Shown: in pieces, positions 7,366-27,447 of the stretch
Layout: each line of letters opens with the position of its first letter
Numbering within the stretch: the first letter of the stretch is position 1
DNA from: a virus
Direction: 5' to 3' (one strand)
Length of the DNA stretch: 64,000 bases
Virus record (IMG/VR): IMGVR_UViG_3300015372_000001
Coordinates: 16,738-80,737 of that record
Made by a program: the position numbers and the translations under genes
Notes under the pieces: model-generated
Databases searched by the model: none
What the model was told of the DNA's origin: nothing
What the model saw: the letters and a program-made list of their open reading frames with translations, nothing else

Positions 7366-8532
7366 TCAGGCCGCACGCTCCAGGATCGGAACGTCCGGGT
7401 GTCGGCAGACCTGCGGAGAAGACCAGTTCCCGGTGTTCCGGAAGTGCTCCTCGTCGGCCATGATCGCCAGCAGCTGACCCACCCAGCCATCGGCCAAGGG
7501 TAGGACCCGACCGTCCGCTTCCCGCATTCCGGGAGCGACGCAGATCCGGCCCAGCCGGCAGCCGTGCTGATCGACCTGCACGATGTTGCCGTGCACGCCG
7601 TTCTGCAGGGTGTCGATCTCATACATCCCACCCTGCGAGCCCCTCACCGGGATGATGTGGCGGTCCCGGAGCGACTGCTTCTGCTCGGGTGTGAGCAGCA
7701 TCTGGAGCAGCTCACCGCCCCGAGCCTCGGCCATGATCCTGGCCTCCTGCGCGGCGGCGTAGCGCTGCTCCTGCTCGAGCGCCCGACGGGCACGCTCCTC
7801 GCGAGCGCGCTGCTCACGATCGGCGAACTCCTGCAACTGCTCGGCCGTGGGCACGGTGCGCTGCTGGATCACCCGCCACTGCTCGGCGACGTGCCGGGCA
7901 GCCTCGCCGGCGTGGGTCAGGGCGTCGCCCATCTGGTGCCAGCCCACATCCCAGGTGACCCCGGTCCCCTCGAAGCGGGCCATGTCCTCGTCGGCGATGG
8001 TGGTGTAGGTACCGGTGGTGGTGTTGCCCACCGTCCACCCTGCCCACATCTCGTCTCTGGTCACGGTCCAATCTCCTATCGTGGTGGTGTTGTAGGCCGG
8101 ATGGGTCCAGGTGACTGTCGGATAAACCGCCGCCGTGACCGTGGTGTAGGTGTTCAGCGCGATCCGGTCCTGGGTGGCCTGGGTGAGGTCGTCCCAGCGA
8201 TACGGGTACGGGTTCTGCACCGGGTAGGTGATGGTGGTGTGGGTGTGGGTCGGGATGTCCCAGGCCCGACCGCCGTAGTGCCGGCCGACTCGCAGGTCGT
8301 TCCAGCCGTACGGCAGCCCCTCGAACCGGCCCCGGTTCCGCCGGACGTACTCGTCGTACTTGGTCTCCCGACCGTCCAACCCCCACTCCCGGAGCAGCCG
8401 AGCCCGCTCCCGGTGGGTGCGTCTGCCGTACAACTCTCGGCTGACGTTGCGCATGTCTCGGCACGGCCGATCCGGCTCGGAGTAGCACCTGGGACAGGCC
8501 ACACCCCAGACGTTCTTGATCCGGCCGGCCAT
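7366..8532 (-). CDS. Cys-motif family protein 1 (N-terminal Zn finger, Thr/Trp-rich linker, coiled coil, conserved C-terminal domain); candidate Ubl partner
   Basis: CPRC..EPDRPC..HRER N-terminus; C-terminus GRICVAP...LPLADGWVGQLLAIMADEEHF aligns with 20388..20909 and 21248..21631. Confidence 0.75.
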   Translation of the reverse strand: MAGRIKNVWGVACPRCYSEPDRPCRDMRNVSRELYGRRTHRERARLLREWGLDGRETKYDEYVRRNRGRFEGLPYGWNDLRVGRHYGGRAWDIPTHTHTTITYPVQNPYPYRWDDLTQATQDRIALNTYTTVTAAVYPTVTWTHPAYNTTTIGDWTVTRDEMWAGWTVGNTTTGTYTTIADEDMARFEGTGVTWDVGWHQMGDALTHAGEAARHVAEQWRVIQQRTVPTAEQLQEFADREQRAREERARRALEQEQRYAAAQEARIMAEARGGELLQMLLTPEQKQSLRDRHIIPVRGSQGGMYEIDTLQNGVHGNIVQVDQHGCRLGRICVAPGMREADGRVLPLADGWVGQLLAIMADEEHFRNTGNWSSPQVCRHPDVPILERAA

Positions 8533-8541
8533 CAGCCGCCC

Positions 8542-8859
8542 TCACGGACTGCCCGGATGAAGCAAGTGGTGGTGACTGGGACACAGCCACCGCACCTCCA
8601 ACGGCTTGGTGTAGTCGTCATGGTGTGCATCGGTCTTCTCCCTTCCGCAGACCTCGCACGGGCCTCTGACCAGCCGCCCAGACTTGAGGGCGGCGGCGAC
8701 CTTGTTGCGCGCAGCAACCTTGGTCCGGTCAGCCTGCTTGGCCTTCGCGAGTTGCTTCGCTCGAGTGCGTTGGTAGTAGCGCTGGCGAGCAGCCTTCACC
8801 TTGTCGGGGTTGGCCGCTCGCCAGGCTCGGTGGTACTCACGACGATCGGGAGGCGTAGC
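8542..8859 (-). CDS. HNH-type endonuclease, start unresolved
   Basis: CEVCG...AHHDDYTKPLEVRWLC..HH motif; frame is open and coding-like (REYHRAWRAANPDK) up to the stop of the upstream gene; first in-frame start is GTG 8799. Confidence 0.75.
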   Translation of the reverse strand, partial: ATPPDRREYHRAWRAANPDKVKAARQRYYQRTRAKQLAKAKQADRTKVAARNKVAAALKSGRLVRGPCEVCGREKTDAHHDDYTKPLEVRWLCPSHHHLLHPGSP

Positions 8860-9120
8860 TCAACCCCCTTGGAGTTGCTTCGTCATTATTATCTTCCCGG
8901 CCTGCGGGTCGAACTCGTGGATCACGGTGCCGGTCTTCTCCCCGGAGGTCTCGTCCACGGTGTAGGCGAGCATCCCCCGCTTCTTGGCCTTGTGGAAGGC
9001 CTCCCTGGCGACCTTCACCTCGTCCTCGATCCGGGGGTCCCACATGATCCGGGTGTCCCCGGTCGGGTCCGCGATCGAGAGCATGTTGCGGCCCTCGGGT
9101 CGGATTGCGGTGTCTGTCAT
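8860..9120 (-). CDS. Ubiquitin/ThiS-like small protein A with C-terminal Gly-Gly (86 aa)
   Basis: Ends KIIMTKQLQGG-stop; paralog of 20910..21170; AAGGA RBS; ORF is solid, Ubl call is inference. Confidence 0.7.
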   Translation of the reverse strand: MTDTAIRPEGRNMLSIADPTGDTRIMWDPRIEDEVKVAREAFHKAKKRGMLAYTVDETSGEKTGTVIHEFDPQAGKIIMTKQLQGG

Positions 9121-9133
9121 GCGATCTTCCTTT

Positions 9134-9355
9134 CTAGTTCCAGGGAAAGTTGTCCCTGAGGTACTGGATCCGGGCCTCCTCGGCGAGGTTGGCCAGGTGC
9201 TTGGTGTACTGGTGGCGCGTGTAGAGCCCGAACGCAGTGCAGACCACGGCCGCCGCCAGGTTCATCAGCGAGACCCAGTTCCACACCCACCAGGCGATGA
9301 ACAGGTTGAAGGCGGCCAGACCGAAGTCCATCAGTGCGATCCAGCGCCAGTGCAC
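9134..9355 (-). CDS. Small membrane protein
   Basis: Two hydrophobic segments; GAGG upstream. Confidence 0.6.
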   Translation of the reverse strand: MHWRWIALMDFGLAAFNLFIAWWVWNWVSLMNLAAAVVCTAFGLYTRHQYTKHLANLAEEARIQYLRDNFPWN

Positions 9356-9356
9356 C

Positions 9357-10232
9357 TCAGTCCACCTCCGGCATGTGGTCGGTGGCGGGCCGGTAGCGCA
9401 TGGTCTGCCGTTCGCGGCCGTTGGCGTAGTCGTTCCAGCTCCTGATCCCGTTGGCCAGGAAGGTGGTCGGCCGGTAGGTGCCGCTGATCGACCGGTAGCC
9501 CTTCTCCGAGATCAGCCAGCGGCGGAAGGCGAGGATCGGGCTGCCGGGGCTCAGGTTGGTGCCGTCGCCCAGCCGCTCCCGGAACTCGGTCTGGGTGTCC
9601 GGACCGTGCTTGGAGTACAGCGAGAGCAGCGCGATCAGGACGCTGACCGAGGTCCGCATCCCGTACCGGCCGACCGCGTTGGAGACGACGTAGCCGGGCC
9701 GGAGCGAGTCCTGGATCGCTGGGCCGACCTCATCGTCGGCCAGCTTGATCAGCAGGTCCTGGGTGGTCATGCCGACCGTGGCCGAGCCCAACGTCGAGGT
9801 GGTGCCGATCACCTCGGGGTAGGCCAGCACCTGGCGGGTGACCGCGGCCAGCACGTTCACGTCGGTGTAACCGGCGATCCGCAGGCTGTCACCCGGCGAC
9901 CGGGCAGCTCCGGTGTCGATCACGCCGAAGGTCTCGGGGTCGGCATCGAAGGCGACCAGACTGGCGACGTGCTTGCGCTGGGCGGCGATCGCGGTGAGCC
10001 GGTGCCGTCCGTCCAGGACGAACCCGGTCGGATCCAGGGCGATCGGCTGGTGGGTGAACTTCCACTCGCCGGTCTCGATCGCGTGCAGGATCTTGGCGAC
10101 GTTCCGCTGGCGGATGGCGCGCTGGTTGCGCTCCGGAGAGACAGTCAGCCACTCGCGGGCCATGGCCGGCGTGATCTTGACCTCCTCGATGCGCATCTTC
10201 CGCTTGCCACCGCCGCTAGGGGTGGTAGTCAT
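9357..10232 (-). CDS. ParB/Srx-like N-terminal domain protein
   Basis: ITPAMAREWL..NQR...GEW...PI.....LDGRHRL motif. Confidence 0.7.
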   Translation of the reverse strand: MTTTPSGGGKRKMRIEEVKITPAMAREWLTVSPERNQRAIRQRNVAKILHAIETGEWKFTHQPIALDPTGFVLDGRHRLTAIAAQRKHVASLVAFDADPETFGVIDTGAARSPGDSLRIAGYTDVNVLAAVTRQVLAYPEVIGTTSTLGSATVGMTTQDLLIKLADDEVGPAIQDSLRPGYVVSNAVGRYGMRTSVSVLIALLSLYSKHGPDTQTEFRERLGDGTNLSPGSPILAFRRWLISEKGYRSISGTYRPTTFLANGIRSWNDYANGRERQTMRYRPATDHMPEVD

Positions 10233-10619: not shown

Positions 10620-12275
10620 CTAGCTGCGCACCATGATCTCGCCGTCGGACAGGTCAACGACGTGGTGCTGCAGCACCCGCTCGAACACGTTCTCGACCGC
10701 CGCCTCCAGAGCAGGCTTGGGCGGCCGGTCGGTGGCCAGCTGGTGCGCGTCGCGCTCGGCGCGCTTGGCGTTGGCCGCCCGGAGGAAGTCCTCGGTCGTC
10801 AGAGGCTGACCGAGCTTCCTGGTCCGGATGATGTTGTGCTTCACCACGTCCTCCAGCGTGCGGACGACGAACGCCGGCATCCAGCCCTCGTAGGCGGTGT
10901 CGAGCTGGGCGTAGTCCAGCTTGGCCCGCTGCGACTCCGGGATGTGGCTGTCGATCAGCCGCTGCAGACCGGGCTGGTCCAACGGGCCGATGACGATGGT
11001 GTGGTCGATCCGGTGACCGCCCTTCATCGACTTCGGGATCTCCTCGGGGTGGTTGGTGGTCATCAGCAGCGTGACCGCGTACCCCTTGGTTCGCATCCCG
11101 TCGAACTCCCCCAGCAGCTTGTCCATGGCGTCGGGGTTCTTGAACAGGTGCTCCACGTCCTCGAGCACCATCACCGTGGGCTGGTCCAGCCGCTGGACGA
11201 ACCGAGTGGCCTGAACCAAGTCCTCGTTCCAGTTCACCTCCACGAAGTTGAACCCGTACTCCAGGCAGTACTGCCCGGCGATCGCCGCCGCGCAGGTCTT
11301 GCCACCACCGTTGTCGCCGGACAACAGCACGTTGTTCGACAGCTTGATGTGGGTCCGCTCCGTCCTCGTGATCGGCTTGCCGTCCTCATCGAGAACCGGC
11401 TTCCGACCCTCAGGGTCGGTCACCCACTCGGTGACCGGCTCGGCTTCGGGATGGTCCGCTGCCACGAGGTTGCCCGCATGGTCGTCGTAGACGATGTTGT
11501 CGTCCTCATCGACCACGTAGACCTTGTGGACCAGGTAGCCAGCGTTGGCCTCCTTGATCAGCTCGTGGCACTCGATCAGCCCGTAGATGTGAGCCTGCAG
11601 CTCCCACCAGTTCTCGGTGGAGTAGGCGATGGTCGCCCGGTCCACCACGTACGGGTCGATGAACTCCGGCTGGGCGGTGACGTTGCGCATCGCCTTCCCG
11701 GCGTAGATCGAGTTCTCCTTGAGGAAGTCCTCGAGGAGCAGGAAGAAGTTCGAGATGTCGGTCTCGTACTTCAGCTTGCCGTAGGCGCTGACCGAGAACG
11801 AGACTCCGTACTCGGGGTGCATCGCCATGCCCAGCTCGAACGTGGTCTCCCAGGGCTTGAAGTACATCGTCCCCCAGGGCACGTTGTAGGACTCGCCGCG
11901 GTTGACCTCGACCGCGATCATCTGCGGCGGCGAGGCGAACCAGCCGGTGGTCCGCTTGCCGAGTGGGGTGTCCCACAGCTGGGTGAGCAGCTTGTTGAAG
12001 TTCCACGCGCCGTCCGGCGGCCGGCACAGGAAGACCTTGGAGAACTCGTAGGTCTCCTCCTCGGCTTCCTTCTTCTCGCGGATGGTCTCCTCGGCGGTCT
12101 CGAGGGCCATGTCCACCGGCAGCGCGATCTTCTTGCCGCCGTCCTTGCGTCGCTCGATCTTCTCGGTCAGGGTGCTGCGGTTCTTGCCGTGCTCGGCAAG
12201 AAGGTCACTGACCCGTCGGCGCTCCTCGTCTGCTGCCTCGGTGCTCCACGGGTCAACCTTCTCCTGCTCTGACAT
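10620..12275 (-). CDS. AAA+ ATPase (classic AAA clade)
   Basis: Walker A GDNGGGKT, Walker B VMVLEDVE, sensor-1 MTTNHPE, Arg-finger region GHRID; GGAAGG RBS before ATG 12275. Confidence 0.9.
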   Translation of the reverse strand: MSEQEKVDPWSTEAADEERRRVSDLLAEHGKNRSTLTEKIERRKDGGKKIALPVDMALETAEETIREKKEAEEETYEFSKVFLCRPPDGAWNFNKLLTQLWDTPLGKRTTGWFASPPQMIAVEVNRGESYNVPWGTMYFKPWETTFELGMAMHPEYGVSFSVSAYGKLKYETDISNFFLLLEDFLKENSIYAGKAMRNVTAQPEFIDPYVVDRATIAYSTENWWELQAHIYGLIECHELIKEANAGYLVHKVYVVDEDDNIVYDDHAGNLVAADHPEAEPVTEWVTDPEGRKPVLDEDGKPITRTERTHIKLSNNVLLSGDNGGGKTCAAAIAGQYCLEYGFNFVEVNWNEDLVQATRFVQRLDQPTVMVLEDVEHLFKNPDAMDKLLGEFDGMRTKGYAVTLLMTTNHPEEIPKSMKGGHRIDHTIVIGPLDQPGLQRLIDSHIPESQRAKLDYAQLDTAYEGWMPAFVVRTLEDVVKHNIIRTRKLGQPLTTEDFLRAANAKRAERDAHQLATDRPPKPALEAAVENVFERVLQHHVVDLSDGEIMVRS

Positions 12276-12350
12276 GCTGTGCCTTCCATAGTTGGCTGTA
12301 CTAGGGGTTCGTTGCACGGTCCTGCTGGTTGGTGCTGGTGGTACCTCCTC

Positions 12351-20387: not shown

Positions 20388-20909
20388 TCAGTAGCGGGTG
20401 TAGGCCACGACCGACTTCGCGAGGAACTGAGTCTCGTTGAACTTCAGGCCCAGGTACTGCCCGAGGTAGAAGTCGTACATCGGGATCGGCAGCGGCTGCC
20501 TCCCCTCCAGCCTCATCGCTTGGCTCCAGAGCTCGTCATCGACCCGAGGGAGCCGGGAGCGGTGCATCGACGCTGGCGTGGAGTAGTCGGACCACAGGTA
20601 TGGACCACCGCAGATCCGGCCGCCCTGGTTCCCGTACGGCGTGGTGGACTTGAACCTGAAGCTGATGTTCTCCACCATCCCGGTGAACCGGATCTCATAG
20701 ACGGCCGATTCGGTCTCCACCTGGATCGGATTGCTGAGATTGCTATCCCAGTCGCCTGGGTCCACCAGTGCCCGCAGCAGAGCCAGCGAGCGCTTCTCGG
20801 CATTCTCCTGGCGCTGCTCCCGGGACGGTCGTGCGGCCCACCGGCCGTTGGGCAGCCGAGGCTGCTGGCGGAGCCGGTTCAGGACGTTGGCGACAGGACT
20901 GCTGGCCAT
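20388..20909 (-). CDS. Cys-motif family protein 3; candidate Ubl partner
   Basis: GRICGGP...PMYDFYLGQYLGLKFNETQF; ATG immediately after the TAG of Ubl B. Confidence 0.75.
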   Translation of the reverse strand: MASSPVANVLNRLRQQPRLPNGRWAARPSREQRQENAEKRSLALLRALVDPGDWDSNLSNPIQVETESAVYEIRFTGMVENISFRFKSTTPYGNQGGRICGGPYLWSDYSTPASMHRSRLPRVDDELWSQAMRLEGRQPLPIPMYDFYLGQYLGLKFNETQFLAKSVVAYTRY

Positions 20910-21170
20910 CTAGCCCCCGACCGTCTGCGGGACCATGACCACCTGCTCGGCGGTCTGGTCGAAGGTGCGGGTGACCGTGCCCGTGCCACCGCCGGAGTCC
21001 ACGGTGAAGGCGAGCATGCCCTTGGCCATGGACTCATCGAAGGTGGCCATGGCCTCGTTGACCTCGGTCTCGACGGCCGGGTCGTAGATCACGTCGGTGT
21101 GGCCGGAGCTGTCCAGGATGCGCAGGACGTGCTTGCCGGCCGGAACGTCGATCTTGGTGAGAGTGGACAT
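20910..21170 (-). CDS. Ubiquitin/ThiS-like small protein B with C-terminal Gly-Gly (86 aa)
   Basis: GAAGGGA RBS; MSTLTK...QVVMVPQTVGG-stop; paralog of 8860..9120. Confidence 0.7.
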   Translation of the reverse strand: MSTLTKIDVPAGKHVLRILDSSGHTDVIYDPAVETEVNEAMATFDESMAKGMLAFTVDSGGGTGTVTRTFDQTAEQVVMVPQTVGG

Positions 21171-21247: not shown

Positions 21248-21631
21248 CTACAGGACCACGACGTGGTGCGGCCAGTGGGCGTAGGGGACGGCCTTCTTGC
21301 GGAAGGCCCGCTCGTCGTACTTCAACGCGAGGTACTGCCCGAGCCAGATGTCGGGGTCCGGCAGTCGGCCGCCTGTGTAGGAGAAGGGCTTCGGCCCCCC
21401 ACACAGGGCGAACATGAAGTGCCCTTCGGTGCCGACTGCCTTGATGTTGATCGCGGTCGAGGCGAACCAGACCTGGTAGCGCTGCCCGCTCTGGCTGGTG
21501 AACTCCAGGTGGGTGTAGATCCGTCGCTGGAACCGACCACGCTTGTCCCGTTCGACCTGCCACCGCCAGTCCGAACTGGGGACGGTGGCTCGTAGCAGAG
21601 CCCAGCTGCGTTCATAGGCCGCTCCGGCCAT
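21248..21631 (-). CDS. Cys-motif family protein 2; candidate Ubl partner
   Basis: FALCGGP...LPDPDIWLGQYLALKYDERAF; AAGGAG RBS. Confidence 0.75.
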   Translation of the reverse strand: MAGAAYERSWALLRATVPSSDWRWQVERDKRGRFQRRIYTHLEFTSQSGQRYQVWFASTAINIKAVGTEGHFMFALCGGPKPFSYTGGRLPDPDIWLGQYLALKYDERAFRKKAVPYAHWPHHVVVL

Positions 21632-24063: not shown

Positions 24064-24464
24064 GGGATGATCCCTTCATCCGGGTCGAACCCAGCTCTCG
24101 CGATCTTCTCGCACTTGGCCAGCAGGTCCTCGACCTCCGTCTGGGTGGTGGTATCGGCGTCGTTCCAGCAGGTGACCACGCCGACCGGGGCCGGCTGAAG
24201 GTCTCCGTCCTCGTCGTACTTGCGCTCGTCGTAGTCGAGCTGGCTGGCCAGCAGCCAGACCGCCTCGGTCATGTCCTCGTGCTCGGAGACCAGTTGCTCC
24301 AGGGACTCGTTGTCGGTCTCGAACAGACCCTGACAGAACGCCATCCCGCCCATCATGCAGACGTGGCCGTTCTCCTCGTTCAGGGTGCCCTGAGCCCAGC
24401 CGTGCTCCCGGATGTACTCCCGGGTGCTGGCCAGCAGGTCGGCCACCCTGTCCATGATCTTCAT
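24060..24464 (-). CDS. DUF6197-like protein
   Basis: YIREHGWAQG...CMMGG...WNDA..TT..EV. Confidence 0.7.
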   Translation of the reverse strand: MKIMDRVADLLASTREYIREHGWAQGTLNEENGHVCMMGGMAFCQGLFETDNESLEQLVSEHEDMTEAVWLLASQLDYDERKYDEDGDLQPAPVGVVTCWNDADTTTQTEVEDLLAKCEKIARAGFDPDEGIIP

Positions 24465-24826
24465 GTGGTGATCCCTTCATCCGGGTCAAACCCGGCTCGT
24501 TCGATCTTGGCTGCCTTGCGGAACGTGTCCAGGACGTGCTGCTTGCCCCGGGCACCCCTCTCCTTGTCGTCGTTCCAGGTCATGACGTTGCCCGAGGCGA
24601 GGACGATGTTCTCGGATCCGTCGATCGCCTTCATCAGGGCCTGACAGGCGCGCGCGACCTCCGGGGCCTGTACCTGGCTCTCGTCCAGGTCAGCGGAGAA
24701 CAGGATCGCGCCGACGGCGCAGCTCTGGTTCCGGTTGGGACCGAGGAGGGCACCCCTCCACCAGCCATGGTTCTCGAGGTAGTCGGCCGCGGCGTCCAGC
24801 CAGTCGGCCACGGATGCGAACTTCAC
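24461..24826 (-). CDS. DUF6197-like protein
   Basis: AADYLENHGWWRG...CAVGAI...WND. Confidence 0.75.
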   Translation of the reverse strand: MKFASVADWLDAAADYLENHGWWRGALLGPNRNQSCAVGAILFSADLDESQVQAPEVARACQALMKAIDGSENIVLASGNVMTWNDDKERGARGKQHVLDTFRKAAKIERAGFDPDEGITT

Positions 24827-25203
24827 AGCTCGTCCCTCTCCGCGATCTTGATGGCTCGGTCGAATGCCTCTACCACCTCGGCCTGGGTCCGACCGGCGGC
24901 GTCGTTCCAGTCGATCAGGTCGTACTCCCAGGGCCCGGTGGTGAGCTCGGTGATGGCCATCTCCACCACCCGCTGGTCGTTGTACAAGCGCTCCTGGACG
25001 GGGCCACGGTGCCCGATCTGCTCCAGGACCGCCATCCGCAGCGCTCCGATCGAGCAGAACCTCAGCTGCCCGTCATCGTCGGTCGTCATCTCGATGTTCT
25101 GGGCCCAGCCGTTCGCGATCTTGTCGCGGGCTGCGGTCAGCTCCGCGACTGTTCGCGTCTGCATCAGTGGTCCCTCTCCGCGGGTGTAACGGGGTCGCTT
25201 CAT
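24823..25203 (-). CDS. DUF6197-like protein
   Basis: GWAQ...CSIGAL...WNDAAGRTQAEVVEAFDRAI. Confidence 0.75.
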   Translation of the reverse strand: MKRPRYTRGEGPLMQTRTVAELTAARDKIANGWAQNIEMTTDDDGQLRFCSIGALRMAVLEQIGHRGPVQERLYNDQRVVEMAITELTTGPWEYDLIDWNDAAGRTQAEVVEAFDRAIKIAERDEL

Positions 25204-26309: not shown

Positions 26310-26647
26310 AGGAACTCCACTCGGGAGAACGGGTTCCCCACAACCGGGTGCTTCGGCTTGTCTCCGTGAGAGGAAGGACCGATCATCTGCTGCCCGGCGT
26401 GGAACTTGCAGATGTCGTTGTAGCAGCTGATGCAGTAGTGGCCGATCATCCCGCAGCAGGACCTGATCGTGACCACCTTCGCCGGGTTGGAGCAGGTGAA
26501 GTTGTTGCCGACGGTCTCCACCGGACCTCCGTTCTCGGCGCGCTGGAACTTGTGCCCGATGCACTTCGGCACCTTCTCCTGGGACTCCTCCGGGTCGAAG
26601 TCCAGGTGGGTGATCTCGGCCGGGACTGTGGTGTTCTGCTCACTCAT
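26306..26647 (-). CDS. Cys-rich hypothetical protein
   Basis: Multiple Cys; GGAG RBS. Confidence 0.55.
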   Translation of the reverse strand: MSEQNTTVPAEITHLDFDPEESQEKVPKCIGHKFQRAENGGPVETVGNNFTCSNPAKVVTIRSCCGMIGHYCISCYNDICKFHAGQQMIGPSSHGDKPKHPVVGNPFSRVEFL

Positions 26648-27107
26648 CGCCGCTCCAGATCCCGAGCAGCGGCTGCCGGTCCCGGTACTCCTCCTCGAAG
26701 TCCTCGTGCCAGGGGAACCTGTCGCTGGCGTCCGGCCAGACGATCTGCAGTGCCTCCACCTGTCCGAAGAGGTGGTTGCACATGGACAGCGGGTAGTCCC
26801 CGAGGGGCTCCAGGACCTCCAGAACGGCCACTCTGAGGCCTCGCAGCACCTCGGTGGAGTAGGTGTCCGGGTAGAACCTGGTACCCCGCTGAACGGCCTG
26901 GTACGCCGCGTTCAGGACACCGTGCGCCTGCTGCTGCACCATGCCCATCACGATCATGTCGGGGTGGTCGTGCTTGGTCATCCCGACGGTGTAGGTGAAG
27001 TACTCGTTGCCCGGGCCGAGGTCGTCCTCGGTGGGGAACACCGAGATCGCCGCCCAGCCGGTGCGCTCGATGTCGTCAAGGACCTTCCGGTCCACCTTGT
27101 CCAGCAT
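26640..27107 (-). CDS. DUF4262-like protein
   Basis: I...GW..I.V...FTYTVG....HPD...G...LQIVWPD...RFPW...QPLL. Confidence 0.8.
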   Translation of the reverse strand: MLDKVDRKVLDDIERTGWAAISVFPTEDDLGPGNEYFTYTVGMTKHDHPDMIVMGMVQQQAHGVLNAAYQAVQRGTRFYPDTYSTEVLRGLRVAVLEVLEPLGDYPLSMCNHLFGQVEALQIVWPDASDRFPWHEDFEEEYRDRQPLLGIWSGDE

Positions 27108-27447
27108 CTTCCTCTCCTTCCGGTGTGGTTGAACGTGCGATCTGCTCCTCGGTGTAGCGGCAGCCGATGGCGAAGCCGTCCACCCACAGCGCCATCCCCA
27201 GCGCCCGCAGATCGAGGTCGGTCTGGAGCGCGGGGTTGATCTCGGTCCCGCGCAGGACCCGTTGGTTGCACAGGTAGACCACGGAGTCGGGGTCGGCATA
27301 GACCGCCACGATCTCCTTGGGATGGTGACCACCCTCGCCGGCCTGACCGTCGAGGTAGTTGACCGCATCGGACAGCCACCAGAAGTCGGTGTGCCGGGGA
27401 CGGTCAGGGAACCTCGGGTCGTTGAGCGGGTCGATGAAGTCGTTCAC
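27076..27447 (-). CDS. Hypothetical protein
   Basis: DPRFPDRP.H.DFW.LS; GTGA overlap. Confidence 0.6.
   Translation of the reverse strand: MNDFIDPLNDPRFPDRPRHTDFWWLSDAVNYLDGQAGEGGHHPKEIVAVYADPDSVVYLCNQRVLRGTEINPALQTDLDLRALGMALWVDGFAIGCRYTEEQIARSTTPEGEEDAGQGGPEGP

Follow-up and report, generated by a model that had tools for sequence, protein, structure and literature searches.

A widespread phage module pairs a Gly-Gly-ended protein, ubiquitin-like in form, with a partner built around an invariant cysteine

The virus record IMGVR_UViG_3300015372_000001 of IMG/VR is an 80.7-kilobase (kb) phage genome, complete according to CheckV, of which we analysed bases 16738-80737. These 64,000 nucleotides (nt) are called here the window. 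At locus A of the window, one gene encodes a small protein with a free C-terminal Gly-Gly (GG), which we name Ubl A (for ubiquitin-like), and another encodes a larger protein, partner A, whose C-terminal domain carries a conserved cysteine. An HNH endonuclease gene lies between the two, as proposed in an earlier note made from the DNA letters alone and as borne out by a match to phrog_2340. Locus B holds a second Ubl gene (Ubl B) flanked by two partner genes, B1 and B2, both of which encode the cysteine domain (Table 1). We show that this pair of genes is a real, widespread and unannotated phage module, ubiquitin-like in form, and we weigh the possibility that it acts through covalent chemistry of the ubiquitin type.

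Table 1. Genes and features of loci A and B, followed by the genes next to locus A (positions count from the first base of the window)
Feature	Position	Strand	Basis
Ubl A (P0001), 86 amino acids (aa), tail KQLQGG, own ribosome-binding site GAAAGGAAG 5' of the ATG	8860..9120	-	sequence
Partner A (P0003), 388 aa, ends Ala-Ala	7366..8532	-	profile and BLAST links
Zn-finger-like motif of partner A, about residues 11-48	8389-8502	-	Phage_zn_bind_8, E 3e-4, below cut-off
Cys domain of partner A, residues 257-388, C331 at nt 7540-7542	7369..7764	-	alignment, model
HNH endonuclease gene, between Ubl A and partner A	8542-8799 (frame 8542..8859)	-	phrog_2340, E 1e-20
Ubl B (P0002), 86-aa paralogue of Ubl A, ends PQTVGG	20910..21170	-	sequence
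Partner B2 (P0005), 173 aa, stand-alone CGGP-type Cys domain (C100), no Ala-Ala tail; ATG abuts the Ubl B stop	20388..20909	-	
Partner B1 (P0004), 127 aa, short CGGP-type Cys domain (C77), upstream of Ubl B	21248..21631	-	
Small hydrophobic Trp-rich open reading frame, probably a membrane protein, directly upstream of Ubl A	9134-9355	-	
phrog_5931 protein, just upstream of locus A	9357-10232	-	
AAA ATPase, 565 aa, just upstream of locus A	10620-12317	-	PF00004, phrog_10440

The two Ubl proteins are paralogues. BLASTP aligns them with 34 identities over 79 positions (43%, E 9e-18), close to the 33 or so that had been counted by hand. The closest relative of Ubl B is the second Ubl of another viral locus, L003 (55% identity), which likewise precedes a partner of the CGGP type. 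Database searches returned 62 relatives, all metagenomic and 47-99% identical, and every one of them terminates in Gly-Gly (64/64 counting the family members). The same free terminus is found in the 24 distinct copies of viral loci (24/24) and in the sole longer relative, and no C-terminal fusion was found among the relatives. The free GG end, on which the earlier reading depended, is thus strictly conserved. The codons of the two glycines differ in their third position (i.e., GGC, GGG, GGT, or GGA); therefore, the residues themselves are under selection.

The fold proposed for these proteins, i.e., a beta-grasp with the order beta-beta-alpha-beta-beta-beta, is also what AlphaFold2 predicts from an alignment of 31 sequences, with a mean predicted local distance difference test (pLDDT) of 79. 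The model has strands at residues 12-18, 21-27, 50-55, 65-67, and 76-81 and a helix at residues 32-47, and the tail has a lower pLDDT (60) in the monomer. The top matches of three structure searches are nearly all beta-grasp proteins. The best rows of Foldseek are Smt3/SUMO, PB1, UBX, and Ras-association domains and a bacterial Ubl, at E 0.02 or worse, none reaching E 1e-3 or better. With VIA-align, used for a second look and for an independent search of 48,161 chains, the rows are almost all beta-grasp at Z of at most 5.4, and include Raf-RBD, protein L/G, PB1, Smt3, BubA, and MoaD (2q5w_D, Z 3.5; 1fm0_D, Z 3.2). These weak scores support the predicted fold class, not homology to a particular Ubl family. 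Indeed, Pfam gives no family for Ubl A at E of 0.1 or lower and only a sub-threshold DUF4265 match for Ubl B, neither ThiS nor MoaD being matched, and searches of PHROGs and of PDB sequences return nothing for the Ubl.

Partner A starts with a Zn-finger-like motif, continues with a Thr/Trp-rich region and a predicted helix rich in Glu, Arg, and Gln, and ends with the Cys domain. When the six frames of the window are scanned with the pattern P..D...GQ.L.[ILVM]..[DN]E..F, exactly three places are found, all on the minus strand and each preceded by [IL]C..P; these are the three copies that had been described, and all of them lie within two genes of a GG gene. Direct tblastn does not join the three copies to each other. 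A hidden Markov model scores them at E 3e-24 to 7e-51, its alignment having included these same copies, and independent BLAST links between them run via the loci L003 and L007. The domain, of about 115 residues, is C-terminal in proteins of 120-516 aa, and among 1.84 billion proteins a 24-member profile retrieves 9382 cluster representatives at E of at most 1e-3, with 5116 at 1e-10 or below. Five residues are invariant across 108 aligned sequences, i.e., N60, C75, P89, D92, and Q97 in domain numbering (N316, C331, P345, D348, and Q353 in partner A), the cysteine singled out from the window copies being one of them. Around it, three subtypes can be recognised: C-V-A-P with a second Cys nearby (partner A), C-G-G-P (both copies of locus B), and C-x-H-P.

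The AlphaFold2 model of the Cys domain (pLDDT 94, predicted template modelling score 0.85) begins with two helices; a four-strand meander then runs up to the Cys and is followed by a loop of 14 residues and by two further helices, which places the invariant Cys at the predicted end of strand 4, 15 residues ahead of the main helix. An exhaustive VIA search of the same 48,161 chains gave as best rows an RWD domain (Z 5.2) and Ubc9 (Z 5.0, root-mean-square deviation 3.4 A, 89 residues aligned), and the UBC/RWD/UEV superfold accounts for about 20 of the 50 highest rows (E2S, UBE2F, Tsg101, Vps23, FANCL, the CdnG-E2 complex, BubCD, and Cap2). Since these scores fall within the range that the tool itself states as noise, we term the domain weakly UBC/RWD-like in predicted topology, and not a proven ubiquitin-conjugating enzyme (E2). 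Searches of Pfam, PHROGs, and PDB sequences give no family for the partner. The earlier note had taken the partner for a non-canonical, Cys-dependent conjugating or processing enzyme; the likeness to UBC/RWD/UEV domains refines the kind of protein that this could be, while a processing role loses ground. Indeed, the CVAP, CGGP, and CxHP subtypes share no conserved His, which makes a Cys-His protease or deubiquitinase unlikely. A zinc site in the domain was also considered and set aside, only one Cys being invariant.

The partners differ mostly at their two ends. In partner A (7933-8265, minus strand) as in P0095, P0116, P0147, and P0159, the N-terminal region shows a Thr-rich stretch with a repeated W-x-x-W spacing followed by a Glu/Arg/Gln-rich helix; informative domain fusions were sought among ten long partners, whose N-terminal regions match no Pfam domain. 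At the other end (7366-7371, minus strand, in partner A), long partners finish with Ala-Ala or Val-Ala in 107 of the 147 best representatives (114 are Ala-final), which we take to resemble the ssrA-type degron recognised by ClpXP. By analogy, if this putative degron is active, the partner would be short-lived unless protected. Stand-alone partners of the CGGP type end in A-N-x-F/Y and not in Ala-Ala or Val-Ala. Partner B1 may be a decaying copy, because it lacks both the insert of about 35 residues and the near-invariant terminal A-N motif of its relatives of 150-156 aa. A database variant of it, P0068, is identical to P0004 over 73 residues and then wholly divergent, as in an interrupted gene or a chimeric assembly.

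The association of the two genes holds well beyond the window, as the earlier reading would have it. Searching viral contigs with the Ubl gave 15 loci, one of which is cut at the contig end and was left out; in the 14 others the partner is always downstream, 12 times immediately and twice after a gap of 440-750 nt. A search that started from another partner subtype returned 11 loci, including 8 that the first search had not, and the GG protein is directly upstream in all 11. In 20 of the 24 distinct loci the partner starts at most 8 nt from the Ubl stop, often in the overlap TGATG, and the pair is probably translationally coupled as a rule. No other gene is conserved near the module in the related loci that were compared. 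Moreover, phages with two modules (this one, L003, and L008) always duplicate the whole pair. The best relatives of Ubl A and of Ubl B in L003 each adjoin the same partner subtype as in the window; to judge from these sequence relationships, the pairs are therefore cognate and older than the split of these phages.

Since coupling is so common among the related loci, the homing-type HNH gene of locus A is an insertion. Read from stop to stop, its frame matches phrog_2340 at E 1.8e-22 over residues 5-101. It is the same frame as that of Ubl A, and the homology begins 5 codons past the TGA of the Ubl, whereas the first possible start, the GTG at 8799, lies about 16 codons further downstream. Readthrough of the TGA producing a Ubl-HNH fusion, a non-canonical start, and a 5'-truncated gene are all possible explanations.

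Co-folding of the GG protein with its partner, which had been put forward as a check of the idea, gives a complex that passes its controls. The prediction score is 0.79, when the best of three controls reaches 0.00; this mark was attained by 58 of 80 solved complexes and by 2 of 110 mismatched pairs, counts that are only rough here as custom alignments were used. Three runs agree in at least 91% of their contacts, with a partner pLDDT of at least 81. On the partner side, the predicted interface comprises residues 75-80 (i.e., the Cys and the following Pro), 86-89, and 92-93 and the main helix (domain numbering); on the Ubl side, it comprises residues 15-22, 51-55, 60-66, and 76-80 and the whole tail 80-86. 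The Ubl sheet would pack on the main helix of the partner while the GG tail runs along the Cys loop, an arrangement that to us recalls the closed form of E2~Ub. In this model, the conserved residues of both families map to a single interface, in which the GG tail and the Cys loop meet. The model supports specific binding, without demonstrating it.

The module appears to be confined to uncultured phages: when 185,579 prokaryotic species genomes were scanned with patterns, neither the Ubl nor the CxHP-type partner had a relative among them. Likewise, a tblastn search with the Ubl and two partner types against 50,697 GenBank phages gave no match, nor did a megablast search with the locus. The ESM Atlas returned only clusters of hypothetical proteins, mostly viral in the case of the Ubl. 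In BFVD the partner matches uncharacterised phage proteins, one of them from Agrobacterium phage Atu_ph07; this phage was examined as a carrier of the module and discarded, as neither family profile matches its genome. A literature search found no description of the module. No activating enzyme (E1) of the ThiF family (PF00899) is present in the 11 records that bear the module (this phage and ten others, 6 of the 11 being at least 99% complete), in scans where the positive controls were matched, and Prok-JAB (PF14464) has no match in the whole 80.7 kb phage record. The statement of the earlier note that the window does not resemble the known E1-E2-JAB operons, and has no E1, thus extends to these ten other records for ThiF and to the entire phage for Prok-JAB. 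Sulfur-pathway genes were not found in the window, and a scan of the flanking genes detected no nucleotidyltransferase (CD-NTase) beside the module.

The genome in which the two loci lie has a guanine-cytosine (GC) content of about 65%, and the window encodes a tape-measure protein, a portal, tail fibres, a DnaB-like helicase, and a DnaE-like polymerase. The closest cultured relatives of this polymerase are from Gordonia phages, with an identity of only 36%; the host is perhaps a high-GC actinobacterium. Both Ubl loci are found within a long block of small accessory genes on the minus strand, opposite to the structural and replication genes. Among the other proteins of this block, an adenylating enzyme was sought and none resembles one. 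The AAA ATPase and phrog_5931 genes next to locus A were considered as components of the system and rejected, since no more than 2-3 of 15 related loci have them close to the module. The block also holds a DUF4262 protein (26640-27368, minus strand, E 2.6e-28) and a DUF6197 protein (24461-25072, minus strand, E 3.8e-16).

What could such a pair do? Our preferred reading, to which we give a probability of about 0.45, is that of a minimal Ubl and E2-like pair acting covalently, with activation of the Ubl by an E1-like enzyme of the host or by an E1-free route. The first gene would provide a beta-grasp Ubl with a free Gly-Gly and the second a partner with a UBC/RWD-like Cys domain, and both would form the specific complex predicted, the GG tail lying against the Cys loop. 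The C-terminus of the Ubl could then be joined to the Cys of the partner (C331 in partner A) as a thioester, in the manner of an E2, and the Ubl be passed on to the partner itself or to targets held by the variable N-terminal region. That this region chooses the targets, as the earlier note proposed, is pure inference, since the N-terminal regions have no match in Pfam. Because the module-bearing phage records encode no E1, activation would depend either on a host adenylating enzyme of the MoeB, MoeZ, or ThiF type, as is the case for SAMP, TtuB, and Urm1 (PMC2948915), or on E1-free chemistry such as that reported for the E2-only form of the cyclic oligonucleotide-based antiphage signalling system (CBASS). 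Of the overall interpretation given in the earlier note, the fold, the GG end, the Cys, the gene linkage, and the absence of E1 and JAB are retained, and the processing role is judged unlikely.

Several observations weigh against such a covalent pair. All fold matches are weak, with Z values that do not exceed 5.4 (Ubl) and 5.2 (partner) and stay under the level that the tool states as typical of noise, and Foldseek finds nothing for the partner domain in the PDB. The partner has no HPN motif, and no match to UQ_con or Prok-E2 was obtained at E of 1 or lower when two sets of 15 and 8 members were compared with Pfam. A free carboxylate requires activation, and the module-bearing records are devoid of E1. 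RWD and UEV domains, which share this fold, bind their partners non-catalytically. Finally, the codons of the Gly-Gly end have a second use, as the Shine-Dalgarno element for the coupled partner gene (e.g., in GGAGGCTGA..GTG), and are thereby placed under an additional constraint.

A more radical form of covalent chemistry, which we judge unlikely and which is drawn by analogy, would dispense with both ATP and E1. The Cys would attack the Gly85-Gly86 bond, the last Gly would leave, and the resulting Ubl~Cys thioester would be passed on to proteins, of the host or of the phage, that the variable N-terminal region binds. L,D-transpeptidases act similarly, with a terminal D-Ala as the leaving group, and so does the E2 of E2-only CBASS, with what follows the Gly of its client. 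If true, this would be a self-sufficient two-gene ubiquitin-like system across thousands of phage lineages.

The preferred reading, that of an E2-like pair, can be set beside known systems, and E2-only (type II short) CBASS offers the nearest precedent for a lack of E1. This system "operates without E1 homologs", and its E2, which has a conserved Cys in a loop near the last strand, bonds covalently with the C-terminus of the CD-NTase, cleaving off what follows (PMC12948482). Both are two-protein systems with no E1, and in its predicted model the phage partner is weakly E2-like in fold and has its conserved Cys near the loop that follows the last beta-strand, as in the CBASS E2; the CdnG-E2 chain 8hsb_B is among the fold matches of the partner (Z 3.1). 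In CBASS, the E2 captures the C-terminal tail of its client covalently, as is proposed for the phage pair. However, the CBASS client is the nucleotidyltransferase CdnG and not an 86-aa beta-grasp protein, and the residues beyond its target Gly are cleaved during ligation, while the GG of the phage Ubl is already terminal. CBASS is also a bacterial defence, unlike this phage-only module, and the two show no sequence similarity.

The operons Bil (BilABCD) and Bub likewise combine a beta-grasp Ubl with a C-terminal Gly and an E2-like protein, in the context of phage-host conflict (PMC10557695, PMC11601596, PMC11601603), and BubA and BubCD chains appear among the weak fold matches of the Ubl and the partner. 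In these cellular operons, however, an E1 is never missing, nor is a peptidase (JAB or Ser protease), whereas the phage module was found without E1 in 11 records and without JAB in one; furthermore, Bub works via oxyesters, and the candidate nucleophile is here a Cys. MoaD, ThiS, CysO, TtuB, SAMP, and Urm1 are alike in being small beta-grasp proteins with a free GG, made as such or processed, whose tail enters the active site of a partner, and their activating enzyme, a housekeeping one of the MoeB/ThiF type, is encoded elsewhere (PMC1779556, PMC2948915). On the other hand, these carriers have no E2-like component, whereas the phage module has an E2-like partner and no E1; the phage Ubl has no Pfam match to ThiS or MoaD, and its partner is unlike the known client enzymes. 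As for eukaryotic E2, UEV, and RWD proteins, the order of helices and strands in the partner model matches the UBC/RWD superfold; unlike an E2, the partner is much shorter (about 115 residues) and lacks both the HPN motif and a UQ_con match, and with a Z of only about 5 homology is unproven.

The same facts have to be weighed under other explanations. The pair might be an obligate heterodimer held by non-covalent contacts, in which the Ubl is a subunit that stabilises, regulates, or inhibits the partner, the partner is a non-catalytic binder of the RWD/UEV kind, and the GG simply plugs a conserved groove. The predicted complex requires no covalent bond, the best fold rows are non-catalytic RWD domains, and the module-bearing records contain no E1; stoichiometric subunits would fit translational coupling, and the degron-like Ala-Ala or Val-Ala ends of the partners suggest a control of protein stability. 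However, when a cytoplasmic protein has a lone invariant Cys and no metal-binding partners for it, a nucleophile is the more typical case, and an exact GG end in all of about 85 relatives is stricter than is usual for groove binding. A purely non-covalent role is in our view a serious rival, if somewhat less likely than the covalent pair. A simpler idea would deny any ubiquitin-like meaning to the GG, which would be kept only as the ribosome-binding site (GGN GGN) of the coupled downstream gene. Junctions such as GGAGGCTGA..GTG, GGGGGCTGATG, and GGAGGGTAACATG, and the short distances from Ubl stop to partner start in 20/24 loci, would agree with it. Yet the commonest form, GGCGGC, matches the Shine-Dalgarno sequence poorly, the residues stay constant despite free variation of the third positions, and Arg, Glu, or Lys codons, which would suit the ribosome equally well, are never seen. 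Moreover, the GG is retained where the partner begins 294-750 nt away (L004, L013, L017, and locus A of the window), and the tail residues 80-86 lie in the predicted interface. Because the codons vary, the GG persists at distant partners, and alternative purine-rich codons are absent, we reject this explanation as highly improbable.

Two further explanations connect the module with host pathways. One would make the pair a decoy or a counter-defence that, instead of tagging its own targets, titrates or competes with a host E1-like enzyme or the Ubl-based immunity of the host (Bil, Bub, or type II CBASS). Antiphage activity of host Ubl systems is documented (10.1101/2023.09.04.556158, PMC10557695), the module is known only from phages, with neither family in the pattern scans of species genomes, and its place in a block of small accessory genes, opposite in strand to the structural and replication genes, would suit such a role. 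We nevertheless consider it quite improbable: the Ubl resembles BilA and BubA in fold but not in sequence, and a Ubl so strictly paired with its own partner suggests a function that is self-contained. Alternatively, a sulfur carrier could serve a client, after the fashion of MoaD-MoaE, ThiS-ThiG, or CysO-CysM: the Ubl would become a thiocarboxylate through a host E1-like enzyme, its tail would bring the sulfur to the conserved pocket of the partner, and the Cys would form an acyl-disulfide or a persulfide. A free GG on a beta-grasp fold, a tail predicted to sit in the conserved site of the partner, and MoaD chains among the fold matches are in keeping with this, and dependence on a host MoeB/ThiF-type enzyme is normal for such carriers (PMC1779556, PMC2948915). 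On the contrary, the partner is unlike MoaE, ThiG, CysM, and the PP-loop thiolases, the window holds no recognised sulfur-pathway gene, and variable, non-enzymatic N-terminal regions are ill-suited to a biosynthetic enzyme, all of which makes a sulfur carrier very improbable.

To our knowledge, ubiquitin-type tagging has been characterised in eukaryotes, in archaea, and in bacterial anti-phage operons, and an E1 is nearly always included, E2-only CBASS being the one exception that we can cite. The module described here is a phage-side pair of a Ubl and an E2-like protein that bears no family name in Pfam or PHROGs. It is small and can be readily tested in vitro. If the pair conjugates, phages would own a minimal tagging system that works with a borrowed host enzyme or without any activation, which would raise the questions of what phages tag in their hosts and of how Ubl chemistry can work without an E1. 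If it does not, there would still be a large family of unannotated heterodimers whose interface strikingly recalls ubiquitin.

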